64,000 bases of DNA, taken from Escherichia coli (lineage in GTDB: Bacteria > Pseudomonadota > Gammaproteobacteria > Enterobacterales > Enterobacteriaceae). Location: NCBI RefSeq assembly GCF_044324785.1, contig NZ_CP172127.1. The stretch is one strand, 5' to 3'. The position numbers and the translations under genes are program-made. The notes under the pieces were generated by a model. The model was not told the DNA's origin, made no database searches, and saw only the letters and a list, made by a program, of their open reading frames with translations. Shown here one piece after another: positions 29,784-33,591 of this stretch. The number at the start of each line of letters is the position of its first letter. Position 1 is the first letter of the stretch.

Positions 29784-31247
29784 ATGTCTTTAGCAAAAGA
29801 TAATATATGGAAACTATTGGCCCCACTGGTGGTGATGGGTGTCATGTTTCTTATCCCTGTCCCCGACGGTATGCCGCCGCAGGCATGGCATTACTTCGCT
29901 GTGTTTGTGGCAATGATTGTCGGCATGATCCTCGAGCCAATTCCGGCAACAGCGATCAGTTTTATTGCGGTTACTATTTGCGTTATTGGCAGTAATTACC
30001 TGCTCTTTGATGCCAAAGAATTAGCTGCCCCAGCGTTTAATGCGCAAAAACAGGCGCTGAAATGGGGCCTGGCTGGTTTTTCCAGCACCACGGTATGGCT
30101 GGTATTTGGCGCATTTATTTTTGCATTAGGGTATGAAGTTTCCGGGTTAGGTCGTCGCATTGCCCTTTTCCTGGTGAAATTCATGGGCAAACGCACGCTG
30201 ACGTTGGGTTATGCGATTGTCATTATCGACATTCTGCTGGCACCGTTTACACCGTCCAACACCGCGCGTACTGGCGGGACCGTTTTTCCGGTCATTAAAA
30301 ACCTGCCGCCGTTGTTTAAATCATTCCCGAACGATCCGTCCGCGCGTCGTATTGGCGGCTATTTGATGTGGATGATGGTCATTAGTACCAGTCTGAGTTC
30401 GTCCATGTTTGTCACCGGTGCGGCACCAAACGTGCTGGGTCTGGAGTTCGTCAGCAAAATTGCCGGTATCCAGATTAGCTGGTTGCAGTGGTTCCTCTGC
30501 TTCCTGCCGGTTGGCGTTATCTTACTTATCATTGCGCCGTGGCTTTCCTACGTGCTTTACAAACCGGAAATCACACACAGTGAAGAAGTAGCAACCTGGG
30601 CGGGTGATGAACTAAAAACCATGGGTGCGCTGACACGCAGAGAGTGGACGCTGATTGGCCTTGTATTGCTCAGCTTAGGTTTGTGGGTATTTGGCAGTGA
30701 AGTCATTAATGCTACTGCGGTAGGTCTGCTGGCAGTTTCACTAATGCTGGCCCTGCACGTTGTGCCGTGGAAAGACATTACCCGCTATAACAGCGCATGG
30801 AACACGCTGGTCAACCTGGCAACTCTGGTTGTGATGGCTAACGGCCTGACTCGTTCTGGTTTTATTGACTGGTTCGCCGGTACCATGAGTACGCACCTGG
30901 AAGGATTCTCACCAAACGCAACGGTGATTGTACTGGTTCTGGTGTTCTACTTTGCACACTACCTGTTTGCCAGCCTGTCTGCGCACACCGCAACCATGCT
31001 GCCGGTTATTCTGGCCGTCGGTAAAGGTATTCCGGGCGTACCAATGGAACAACTGTGTATCCTGCTGGTGCTGTCTATCGGTATCATGGGCTGTCTGACG
31101 CCGTATGCAACCGGTCCTGGGGTGATTATTTACGGCTGTGGCTATGTGAAATCAAAAGATTACTGGCGTCTTGGCGCAATCTTCGGGGTGATTTACATCT
31201 CTATGTTGCTGTTGGTTGGCTGGCCGATTCTCGCCATGTGGAACTAA
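29784..31247 (+). CDS. citT: Citrate:succinate antiporter (DASS family)
   Basis: 487 aa polytopic transporter at the end of the citrate lyase operon. Confidence 0.94.
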   Translation: MSLAKDNIWKLLAPLVVMGVMFLIPVPDGMPPQAWHYFAVFVAMIVGMILEPIPATAISFIAVTICVIGSNYLLFDAKELAAPAFNAQKQALKWGLAGFSSTTVWLVFGAFIFALGYEVSGLGRRIALFLVKFMGKRTLTLGYAIVIIDILLAPFTPSNTARTGGTVFPVIKNLPPLFKSFPNDPSARRIGGYLMWMMVISTSLSSSMFVTGAAPNVLGLEFVSKIAGIQISWLQWFLCFLPVGVILLIIAPWLSYVLYKPEITHSEEVATWAGDELKTMGALTRREWTLIGLVLLSLGLWVFGSEVINATAVGLLAVSLMLALHVVPWKDITRYNSAWNTLVNLATLVVMANGLTRSGFIDWFAGTMSTHLEGFSPNATVIVLVLVFYFAHYLFASLSAHTATMLPVILAVGKGIPGVPMEQLCILLVLSIGIMGCLTPYATGPGVIIYGCGYVKSKDYWRLGAIFGVIYISMLLLVGWPILAMWN

Positions 31248-31277
31248 TACGTTCGCCAAACGCTGAATAAATCATCA

Positions 31278-31313
31278 CGCCCGCCAGGTAAGCCCACCTG
31301 GCGGGCTTTTTTA
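31278..31313 (+). terminator. Strong intrinsic terminator after citT
   Basis: GCCCGCCAGGT-aagccc-ACCTGGCGGGC followed by TTTTTT. Confidence 0.85.
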
Positions 31314-31360
31314 TGATTTAATAGATAGTATTCAGTGTATGTATGAGTTCCACACCCATT

Positions 31361-32167
31361 ATGAAAGCATTCTGGCGTAACGCCGCGTTGCTCGCGGTTT
31401 CTCTGCTTCCCTTCTCTTCTGCCAACGCCGTAGCGTTGCAGGCAAAACAGTATGGCGATTTTGATCGCTATGTCCTGGCCCTCTCCTGGCAAACCGGATT
31501 TTGCCAGAGTCAACACGATCGAAATCGTAACGAACGAGATGAATGTCGCCTGCAAACCGAAACGACCAACAAAGCTGATTTTCTGACCGTACATGGTCTG
31601 TGGCCAGGATTGCCTAAATCGGTTGCTGCCCGTGGTGTTGATGAACGCCGCTGGATGCGCTTCGGTTGCGCTACTCGCCCAATCCCGAATCTACCAGAAG
31701 CGCGCGCCAGCCGAATGTGTTCATCGCCGGAAACCGGGTTATCGCTGGAAACGGCCGCTAAACTAAGTAAAGTCATGCCAGGAGCTGGCGGACGTTCCTG
31801 CCTGGAACGCTACGAATATGCCAAACACGGTGCCTGCTTTGGTTTTGATCCAGACGCATACTTCGGCACGATGGTACGCCTGAATCAAGAAATTAAAGAG
31901 AGCGAAGCCGGAAAATTCCTTGCGGATAACTACGGTAAGACAGTGAGCCGCCGTGACTTTGACGCCGCCTTTGCCAAAAGCTGGGGAAAAGAGAACGTGA
32001 AAGCAGTTAAGCTAACGTGTCAGGGTAACCCTGCGTATTTGACTGAAATTCAGATCTCGATCAAAGCTGACGCCATCAACGCTCCGCTTTCTGCAAACTC
32101 ATTCTTGCCACAACCACACCCAGGCAACTGTGGCAAAACCTTTGTGATTGATAAAGCAGGTTATTAA
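31361..32167 (+). CDS. rna: Ribonuclease I (RNase T2 family, periplasmic)
   Basis: ORF track 31343..32167 trimmed to MKAFWRNAALLA (268 aa); signal peptide; HGLWP catalytic motif. Confidence 0.93.
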   Translation: MKAFWRNAALLAVSLLPFSSANAVALQAKQYGDFDRYVLALSWQTGFCQSQHDRNRNERDECRLQTETTNKADFLTVHGLWPGLPKSVAARGVDERRWMRFGCATRPIPNLPEARASRMCSSPETGLSLETAAKLSKVMPGAGGRSCLERYEYAKHGACFGFDPDAYFGTMVRLNQEIKESEAGKFLADNYGKTVSRRDFDAAFAKSWGKENVKAVKLTCQGNPAYLTEIQISIKADAINAPLSANSFLPQPHPGNCGKTFVIDKAGY

Positions 32168-32259
32168 TCCTCTGATTTACAAAAGACGCTAATTCGTCTT
32201 CCATAAACCATGACGATTAAGATTTATACATAATGCGCTGCATTGAGGAATTCCCTGAA

Positions 32260-32275
32260 TGTGACGCAAATCACT
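32260..32275 (+). promoter_or_regulatory. CRP-like site TGTGA-N6-TCACT with a downstream -10-like hexamer
   Basis: 9 of 10 match to TGTGA-N6-TCACA; TATCAT-like hexamer about 25-30 bp downstream. Confidence 0.35.
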
Positions 32276-32316
32276 TCAAAGAGTGAGCAACAGTCAGTAT
32301 CATCATGTGAGTTAAA

Positions 32317-32348
32317 CCCTCGCCGCCTGACGGTGAGGGTTTTCTTTT
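32317..32348 (+). terminator. Strong hairpin plus U-tract between rna and rnk
   Basis: CCCTCGCCG-cctga-CGGTGAGGG (9-bp stem with one G-U pair) followed by TTTTCTTTT; lies about 50 nt upstream of the rnk ATG. Confidence 0.6.
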
Positions 32349-32396
32349 GGGTATGTTTATCTGCGACACTCGCAGTACCGACGACATGGAGTAAAA

Positions 32397-32807
32397 ATGT
32401 CCAGACCAACTATCATCATTAACGACCTGGATGCCGAACGCATCGATATTCTGCTGGAGCAACCCGCCTATGCTGGTTTGCCAATCGCCGACGCGTTAAA
32501 CGCAGAGTTGGATCGCGCCCAAATGTGTTCGCCAGAACAGATGCCACACGACGTGGTGACAATGAACAGCCGGGTTAAATTCCGCAATCTTAGCGATGGC
32601 GAAGTGCGTGTGCGCACGCTGGTGTATCCGGCAAAAATGACCGATAGCAATACTCAGCTTTCCGTTATGGCTCCGGTAGGTGCCGCACTGCTGGGACTGC
32701 GCGTTGGCGATTCCATTCACTGGGAACTTCCGGGCGGCGTTGCAACCCACCTTGAAGTGCTGGAACTCGAATACCAGCCAGAAGCTGCTGGCGACTACCT
32801 GCTTTAA
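32397..32807 (+). CDS. rnk: Regulator of nucleoside diphosphate kinase Rnk (GreA/GreB-like)
   Basis: 136 aa; GGAG-type ribosome-binding site upstream. Confidence 0.92.
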
Positions 32808-32840
32808 TCCCATCTGCACAAGCGATAACTCGCTTTGCCC

Positions 32841-32866
32841 AGAGGATGCACTCGCATCCTCTTTCC
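32841..32866 (+). terminator. Hairpin terminator after rnk
   Basis: AGAGGATGC-actc-GCATCCTCT followed by a T-rich tail. Confidence 0.55.
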
Positions 32867-32949
32867 GCTCAAATATCAACCAGATTTATCATTTTGCTCT
32901 TAAGCGCAGCATTCTAATCTGAACTGGTTATTCATCTGCGGAACCTCAT

Positions 32950-33039
32950 ATGAGCGAAGCTCTCGGTATCACTGCATTTTATATATTCATAGCCGCAATT
33001 ATTGTTGCTGCAGTGCTATACCTTGAACAACGCTGGTAG
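32950..33039 (+). CDS. Hypothetical 29-aa single-TM small protein (MSEALGITAFYIFIAAIIVAAVLYLEQRW)
   Basis: Read by hand; below the ORF-track length cutoff; ATG to TAG; strongly hydrophobic core; weak ribosome-binding site. Confidence 0.25.
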   Translation: MSEALGITAFYIFIAAIIVAAVLYLEQRW

Positions 33040-33162
33040 CGCCTGGTTTTATTTATTTTCCAGCTCAATAGCAAATTCAGATCAAATCAGCCTCGCAAAT
33101 CATAGATTCATAACCAATAATGTGCTGTTATGTATACATGCAAAAACAAGGAGAGAATGCTT

Positions 33163-33591
33163 ATGTACAAAACAATCATCATGCCAGTGGATGTTTTCGA
33201 AATGGAATTGAGCGACAAAGCGGTTCGCCACGCTGAATTCCTCGCCCAGGATGACGGAGTTATTCATCTACTTCACGTACTACCGGGGTCAGCCAGCCTG
33301 AGCCTGCACCGTTTTGCCGCTGATGTGCGTCGTTTTGAAGAGCATCTGCAACATGAAGCAGAAGAACGTCTGCAAACGATGGTCAGCCACTTCACCATCG
33401 ATCCTTCCCGCATTAAGCAACATGTCCGTTTTGGTAGTGTGCGGGATGAAGTTAACGAGTTAGCGAAAGAACTTGATGCAGATGTAGTAGTGATTGGTTC
33501 GCGTAACCCATCAATTTCAACTCATCTGTTGGGTTCTAACGCCTCGAGCGTAATCCGCCACGCCAATTTGCCGGTGCTGGTTGTGCGTTAA
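33163..33591 (+). CDS. uspG: Universal stress protein UspG
   Basis: ORF track 33130..33591 trimmed to [10 protein letters not shown] (142 aa); AAGGAGA ribosome-binding site 8 nt upstream. Confidence 0.93.

Follow-up and report, generated by a model that had tools for sequence, protein, structure and literature searches.

Background

Little is understood of Rnk, a Gre-like protein that acts as a competitor for the RNA polymerase (RNAP) secondary channel. Class II CRP promoters, of which galP1 is an example, have CRP centred near -41.5, overlapping the -35 element. A system closer to rnk by gene is its paralogue greA, whose promoters feed a terminator in the leader; according to Potrykus et al. 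2010 (PMC2836576), about two thirds of the transcripts terminate there, giving the GraL RNAs of 40-60 nt. The region upstream of rnk itself has been described by Naville & Gautheret 2010 (PMC2965389) as a putative attenuator with 'a clear antiterminator'; these authors also noted the greA parallel and the co-immunoprecipitation of the intergenic region with Hfq. In Rfam it is the family RF01771 (rnk_leader, 'Enterobacteria rnk leader'), whose RNA model, about 109 nt long, comprises a 5' hairpin together with the proposed antiterminator, and an RNA designated '5'rnk' appears in Hfq RIL-seq chimeras with the fepA mRNA. In Salmonella, an RNA of about 100 nt, sRNA10, was detected on Northern blots in late stationary phase only, and its 5' end by RACE lay 5 nt away from the start that had been predicted (Sridhar et al. 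2010); it is sigmaS-dependent (Levi-Meyrueis 2014), has an SPI2-like expression pattern, stands in the '3'end' column of the location table of Colgan 2016, as read from the row layout, and has a published identity to E. coli of 0.77 (0.771). CRP ChIP-seq in ETEC H10407 yielded a peak assigned to rnk, and Genomic SELEX in K-12 placed rnk among the newly identified CRP targets. Finally, in the Cit+ innovation of Lenski's long-term evolution experiment (LTEE), the promoter that came to lie upstream of citT by duplication was the rnk promoter (Prnk). The element is thus largely already known, in pieces, from RF01771, the CRP target lists, sRNA10 and the Prnk of the LTEE. What we add is a reading in which the 5' helix of RF01771 is the CRP operator, a conserved promoter lies within the supposed leader, and a regulated antiterminator is unlikely.

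Results and discussion

Gene content of the rnk locus

The window analysed here is a stretch of 64,000 nucleotides of E. coli DNA, and the queried DNA is 100% identical, over the query, to that of E. coli strain PCN033. The genes of interest are all encoded on the plus strand, in the order citT (29784-31247), rna (31343-32167, the stop codon ending at 32167), rnk (coding sequence 32397-32807), a yldA-like small ORF (32951-33041) and uspG (33130-33591). Both the ORF and the RefSeq annotation identify rnk as a nucleoside diphosphate kinase regulator, a Gre-family protein of the RNAP secondary channel. ybdR is absent from this strain, as in the window (32810-33130) the yldA-like ORF is directly followed by uspG; in K-12 (L001) this gene of 1.2 kb lies between yldA and uspG. 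Over positions 32226-32365, K-12 MG1655 is identical to the window, and the features discussed below correspond there to minus-strand positions 644104-644089 (CRP site), 644066-644061 (-10 hexamer) and 644050-644022 (hairpin), with the U-tract ending at 644016. The original prediction for this interval had described a match to the CRP consensus at 9 of 10 positions, a -10 hexamer, a hairpin and a U-tract, and we recovered all four where it had placed them.

A block of conserved elements is linked to rnk rather than to rna

We collected 80 rnk loci from genomes of the Enterobacteriaceae, covering about 30 genera, and aligned their upstream regions, which together with that of the window gave 76 distinct sequences. 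Five blocks are invariant in all 76 sequences, namely, GTG, TCACTTC (32271-77), GTAT-AT, CCCT and GGGTTTT. Between them, two stretches vary in sequence and are exact in length (the spacer of the CRP site and the 14 nt between the -35 and -10 elements), and the stretch from the -10 element to the hairpin, about 10 nt, varies in sequence and, by a few nucleotides (7-12), also in length. The conservation pattern is therefore blocky, as in a promoter. In most genera the block made up of the CRP site, the -10 element, the hairpin and the U-tract is found 135-138 nt from the rnk start codon, the distance being 125-132 nt in Kosakonia, Phytobacter and Pluralibacter.

The position of rna relative to this block differs among genera. 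It lies directly upstream of rnk in Escherichia, Salmonella and Kosakonia; it ends 0.85-1.9 kb away in the Citrobacter freundii group, Enterobacter, Lelliottia, Leclercia, Kluyvera, Yokenella and others; and Superficieibacter and Pluralibacter have no rna match at all. At every inspected locus without an adjacent rna, the neighbour of rnk is on the opposite strand; the RefSeq annotation of a Citrobacter-like block carried by an E. coli plasmid gives such neighbours as a flavin reductase family protein and an alpha/beta-fold hydrolase. Since the block keeps its fixed distance to rnk even beside a divergent neighbour, it belongs to rnk.

Scanning and folding of the sequence from the rna stop codon to position 32314 revealed no terminator-like structure of rna's own, so that transcription from rna probably continues into the promoter and leader of rnk. 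The same interval (32168-32313) contains the small inverted repeat AAGACG-CUAAUU-CGUCUU, which lacks a U-tract, and the folding of the interval is no stronger than that of shuffled sequences (z = -1.0). In E. coli and Salmonella, where rna adjoins without a terminator of its own, the rnk hairpin probably also ends the rna transcripts.

The CRP site upstream of rnk

The CRP-binding site TGTGACGCAAATCACT is located at 32260-32275, with its centre at 32267.5, and matches the consensus TGTGA-N6-TCACA at 9 of 10 positions. A pattern match of this quality is by itself of little weight, as the 64-kb window contains one match against 0.30 expected, and at least one match was found in 24 of 100 shuffled sequences; hence, it is not significant alone. 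What raises the site above chance is its conservation in 76 distinct orthologous sequences, together with the published binding of CRP to the exact 16-mer. In the alignment, the half-sites GTG (32261-63) and TCAC are invariant, in the arrangement GTG-N8-TCAC, and the 6-nt spacer varies freely. The original prediction had named CRP ChIP data as a check, and the ETEC H10407 peak bears it out: the site reported there, AGTGATTTGCGTCACA, is the reverse complement of the 16-mer in the window and was assigned to rnk. On the basis of the published ChIP-seq and SELEX results, the CRP site in the window is genuine, and as far as a consensus-like site bound by CRP is concerned, the region has what a class II CRP promoter would have, the 9-of-10 match being observed here and the binding being taken from the literature.

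The promoter associated with the CRP site

A promoter scan of positions 31000-33500 returned TTCAAA-17-TATCAT as the only sigma70-like site. Its -35-like hexamer TTCAAA (32275-32280, plus strand) overlaps the right half-site of the CRP palindrome; in the 76 sequences its TTC never changes, and each A is conserved to at least 90%. Kosakonia has TTCACA instead, which is closer to the consensus (10/12 in the scan). The -10 hexamer TATCAT (32298-32303, plus strand), identified by both the scan and conservation, follows 17 bp after TTCAAA and 22 nt after the CRP 16-mer. It is conserved as TATNAT, the fourth base being C, T or G and the other five being invariant, and the whole GTAT-AT (32297-32303) is invariant in the 76 sequences. 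The distance from the 16-mer to the start of the -10 element is 22 nt in every parsed locus; two loci that scored 25 are TATTATCAT sequences, and their TATTAT also stands at 22. The claim that a -10 element lies downstream of the CRP site thus holds beyond E. coli, since the hexamer recurs at a fixed distance across the related loci. Overall, the window and 79 of the 80 related loci have the proximal promoter, the motif being missing from a single locus (L025), and the same promoter and terminator were called independently by the scan in Enterobacter, Kosakonia and Salmonella loci. Another candidate for a general promoter, a -10 element at alignment columns 3-8 (CATATG/CATAAT), was rejected, as the key A and T are present in just 18 of the 76 sequences. 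The trinucleotide CAG (32295-32297), which adjoins the -10 hexamer on its upstream side, is conserved to at least 90%, and its G at -13 is invariant in the 76 sequences; this CAG does not make an extended -10 element (TGn) and is explained by neither a promoter nor an RNA model.

Placing the start 6-8 nt downstream of the -10 element predicts transcription from 32309-32311 (G, A, G; plus strand), which would put the CRP centre at -41.5 to -43.5, with the CRP site overlapping TTCAAA. The distance from the CRP centre to the first base of the -10 element is 30.5 bp, which is 1 bp beyond the canonical -41.5 geometry. The likeness to class II CRP promoters consists in a consensus-like CRP site over a weak -35 element, at a fixed distance to a good -10 element, with CRP occupancy in vivo; however, the rnk promoter differs from them in that its spacing is 1 bp longer and in that an intrinsic terminator is located within 5 nt of the predicted start. 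As judged from these sequence features, the conserved rnk promoter is most likely a class II-type CRP promoter with a predicted +1 near 32310.

The terminator hairpin and the rest of the 5' UTR

The hairpin AAACCCUCGCCG-CCUGA-CGGUGAGGGUUU (32314-32342, plus strand), supported by the scan, folding and conservation, corresponds to the 3' helix of RF01771 and starts 147 nt past the rna stop codon (32167). It has 12 pairs, with a G+C-rich core of 9 bp at 32317-32339, and is directly followed by the U-tract UUUUCUUUU (32340-32348), the first three U of which double as the last stem pairs; the end of the U-tract at 32348 is 48 nt before the rnk start codon (32397). Over the 76 sequences the hairpin is 99.3% paired, with compensatory changes in three pairs, and the U-tract is nearly invariant, a variant UUUUUCUUU occurring in Kosakonia and Phytobacter. 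A G+C-rich hairpin running directly into a U-tract, with its pairing kept in evolution, has the make-up of an intrinsic terminator. For the predicted 39-nt RNA from 32310 to 32348, the folding energy is -20.1 kcal/mol (z = -4.9). In the curated Term-seq list of Adams 2021 there is neither an rnk entry nor any RNA 3' end in the K-12 interval 6433xx-6451xx, which points to weak expression or to short RNAs having been lost. The Northern band of Salmonella sRNA10 would be compatible with a 3' end at the U-tract.

The remaining rnk 5' UTR (32349-32396, plus strand) includes a second small hairpin, CUGCGACACUCGCAG, at 32356-32370, and a Shine-Dalgarno (SD) sequence GGAG within the conserved ATGGAGTAA. 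The stem of the small hairpin is retained with a variable loop in many genera; in other genera unrelated small hairpins take its place, and it is missing where this UTR is only 27-28 nt long (Kluyvera and some Kosakonia). A two-codon mini-ORF, ATG GAG TAA (32386-32394), overlaps the SD sequence of rnk (GGAG) and ends 2 nt before the rnk start codon, and ATGGAGTA(A/G) is found in 74 of 81 orthologous loci, a degree of conservation that exceeds the need of an SD sequence alone.

The 5' half of RF01771 coincides with the promoter

The window matches RF01771 at 32243-32351 on the plus strand, scoring 124.9 bits (gathering score, 50; E = 2e-25), and the match covers model positions 1-109 of 109. 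It ends 45 nt before the rnk start codon on the same strand, and the position is the same in the 80 orthologous loci; the window element is thus a full-length member of this family, upstream of rnk and with the terminator hairpin and U-tract. The model consists of two helices, of which the 3' one is the terminator, and the 5' one (GAA-UGUGA ... UCAC-UUC) is exactly the CRP palindrome. This 5' helix (G15-C35 ... A22-U29) does not behave as a real RNA helix: in the 76 sequences it shows no compensatory changes, three of its pairs never vary, and its outer and closing pairs are unpaired in 21 and 24 sequences, respectively. No conserved structure competing with the terminator was found, as the RNAalifold consensus consists only of the terminator and three invariant pairs, and the region from the CRP site to the hairpin is variable apart from the -10 element. 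A potential antiterminator in E. coli, GUGAG (32283-87) pairing with CUCGC, was set aside, the stretch not being conserved.

The family is modelled as an RNA of full leader length with a 5' hairpin and a proposed antiterminator, whereas in the window the 5' hairpin is a CRP palindrome without covariation, a promoter lies within the model, and no conserved antiterminator was found. Going by the alignment, the 5' half of RF01771 is conserved as DNA (CRP site, -35 and -10 elements) and only the terminator is conserved as RNA structure. Since a conserved promoter lies inside the 'leader' and the 5' helix is a CRP operator, a regulated antiterminator is unlikely. The consequence for RF01771 would be that its 5' helix is to be reread as a protein-binding DNA palindrome rather than as an RNA stem, and that the real leader would be a switchless hairpin RNA of about 39 nt, comparable to greA/GraL.

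Salmonella sRNA10 and upstream promoters

The Salmonella sRNA10 comes from the same rnk/rna intergenic region and the same strand, and would overlap the same hairpin region, but it differs from the RNA predicted here in its length, in having its 5' end upstream of the CRP site, and in a probable promoter that is degenerate in Escherichia. sRNAscanner, by which it was predicted, requires at least 40 nt between the -10 element and the terminator; therefore, the sRNA10 promoter is not TATCAT, and its 5' end must be upstream of the CRP site. A good TTGAGA-18-TAAAAT site lies 36 nt upstream of the CRP site in the Salmonella arizonae locus L020 (2297-2326), and sites of this type occur in Salmonella and Citrobacter 36-45 nt upstream of it. 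TTGAGA-18-TAAAAT is probably the sRNA10 promoter. When a unit of 100 nt is slid along the locus, the one starting just after TAAAAT has an identity to E. coli of 0.76-0.79, in agreement with the published 0.771. An alternative mapping, with the start at TTGAGG (which is also the Rfam start), fits the box arithmetic of sRNAscanner, 6+18+6+41+29 = 100, and under both mappings the RNA begins upstream of the CRP site.

A longer leader, as the sRNA10 literature documents, exists at least in Salmonella. In the window, alignment with the TAAAAT of Salmonella and Citrobacter points to a degenerate upstream -10 element, TAAGAT (32218-32223, plus strand), which in Escherichia has no matching -35 element and was not called by the promoter scan. 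An upstream sigma70-like site of any kind is present in 27 of the 80 loci, and the TTGAGA/TAAAAT type occurs only in Salmonella, Citrobacter and a few Enterobacter; Escherichia has no upstream promoter of the sRNA10 type, the single Escherichia hit (L002) being unrelated. Upstream of 32255, the genera share no conserved sequence. Some lineages may thus have tandem promoters, as at greA, the conserved one being the proximal promoter, predicted to be linked to CRP.

A proposed CRP-linked promoter firing into a terminator

We regard as moderately likely a model in which a class II-type CRP promoter gives rise to both a terminated RNA of about 39 nt and a read-through rnk mRNA, as described for greA/GraL. 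cAMP-CRP would bind the palindrome at 32260-32275, over the -35 region of the sigma70 promoter (TTCAAA, 17 bp, TATCAT), and transcription would start near 32310, about 4 nt upstream of the stable hairpin and its U-tract. CRP would presumably act as an activator here, although the binding data fit repression too. Most polymerases would stop after about 38-40 nt, leaving a product made up of the hairpin and a U-tail, an Hfq-type 3' end that would make it a candidate for the Hfq-bound species; a fraction, presumably the minority, would read through, giving an rnk mRNA with a 5'-terminal stem-loop. The stop would be leaky, either fixed or factor-tuned, rather than an antiterminator switch, because a transcript from about 32310 has no RNA upstream of the hairpin. 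The greA precedent, the '5'rnk' chimeras in Hfq RIL-seq and the co-immunoprecipitation of the intergenic region with Hfq are in keeping with this model. The earlier interpretation, in which a CRP-dependent promoter feeds an attenuator that controls rnk, is therefore partly supported, by conservation and published CRP binding: the CRP site, the conservation of the promoter and the hairpin's travelling with rnk all favour it, but a regulated attenuator is doubtful, with about 4 nt before the hairpin and no antiterminator conserved. The likeness to greA/GraL consists in a Gre-family gene with promoters firing into a leader terminator, which at greA gives terminated short RNAs and a minority of read-through mRNA; the greA promoters, however, are described as sigma70- and sigmaE-dependent, not CRP-dependent.

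In the main alternative, transcription would begin on the upstream side of the CRP palindrome. The resulting leader or sRNA, 100-120 nt long, would have the TGTGA/TCAC palindrome as its 5' hairpin and would operate as an antiterminator/terminator switch; CRP, if it acts at all, would repress or block. We consider this unlikely as the principal arrangement, although it can coexist with the proximal promoter, in the manner of the tandem greA promoters P1 and P2. The extent of RF01771, which includes the 5' helix, and the antiterminator reported by Naville & Gautheret (PMC2965389) speak for it, as do the length of sRNA10 on the Northern blot, its 5' RACE end and the spacing rule that places its promoter upstream, together with the L020 site and the reproduction of the published identity by the 100-nt unit following TAAAAT. 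Against these stand the broken and never compensated pairs of helix 1, an RNAalifold consensus limited in effect to the terminator, an upstream site in 27 of 80 loci versus a proximal promoter in 79 of 80 and the window, and the loss of cross-genus conservation upstream of 32255; furthermore, an RNA-level rationale is lacking for a TATNAT whose fourth base is free. The reading that the hairpin is merely the rna terminator, with coincidental CRP-like and -10-like matches, was offered along with the original prediction, and it is contradicted as a sole explanation and very improbable. It is true that the hairpin is the first terminator that rna transcripts meet in E. coli, that sRNA10 is tabulated under '3'end' in Colgan 2016 and that by itself the match to the CRP pattern lacks significance in the window, but the block tracks rnk at a fixed distance where rna is 0.85-1.9 kb off and the neighbour is divergent, CRP occupies the site in vivo in the ETEC ChIP-seq data, and the half-sites and the -10 element are invariant over about 30 genera.

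A hairpin at the 5' terminus, close to the 5' triphosphate, protects mRNAs from 5'-end-dependent decay, as does the 5' stem-loop of ompA, and the hairpin here would lie within about 4 nt of the 5' triphosphate, which is such an mRNA-protecting arrangement. Accordingly, the hairpin might mainly stabilise the rnk mRNA, or the main product might be a trans-acting Hfq-dependent sRNA, short or long, or both, with the control of rnk dosage by termination being secondary. The chimeras of '5'rnk' with fepA, the Hfq co-immunoprecipitation of the intergenic region (PMC2965389) and the regulated expression of sRNA10 in Salmonella would fit a trans-acting sRNA; however, a seedless hairpin of 39 nt offers little single-stranded sequence for base pairing and has no validated target, and a pure stabiliser would not need a near-invariant U-tract. 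We therefore consider this explanation improbable, and return to the promoter that fires into a leaky terminator as the preferred one.

A more speculative extension of the preferred model, which we put forward with considerable reserve and think improbable, is that greA and rnk are built alike, each with a stress-responsive promoter whose transcripts run straight into a terminator. Each initiation would end either in an RNA of about 40 nt that binds Hfq or in an mRNA, with the split set by the occupant of the RNAP secondary channel (Rnk, the Gre factors or DksA), which would amount to autoregulation without an RNA switch; the rnk promoter would be CRP-activated, and hence the Prnk placed at citT would be induced by glucose exhaustion and intrinsically attenuated. 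More generally, a CRP-activated and terminator-attenuated Prnk would bear on the timing and the weakness of citT expression in the first Cit+ cells.

Other features of the region

A strong hairpin with a T-run, GCCCGCCAGG...CCTGGCGGGC TTTTTT, is located at 31279-31306, directly 3' of citT and just upstream of the rna start, and is probably the citT terminator. Rfam matches at the same position (STnc310 and the Trp leader) are below threshold, weak and chance-like. The Citrobacter-like block mentioned above is a chromosomal block carried by a 300-kb plasmid of E. coli MSB1_9D (NZ_LR890350.1; L082), with citT, rna, flavin reductase (minus strand), alpha/beta hydrolase (minus strand), rnk and uspG; it includes the rnk leader, with 85% identity. 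Among the 5437 matches in E. coli genomes, 4 are plasmid-borne.
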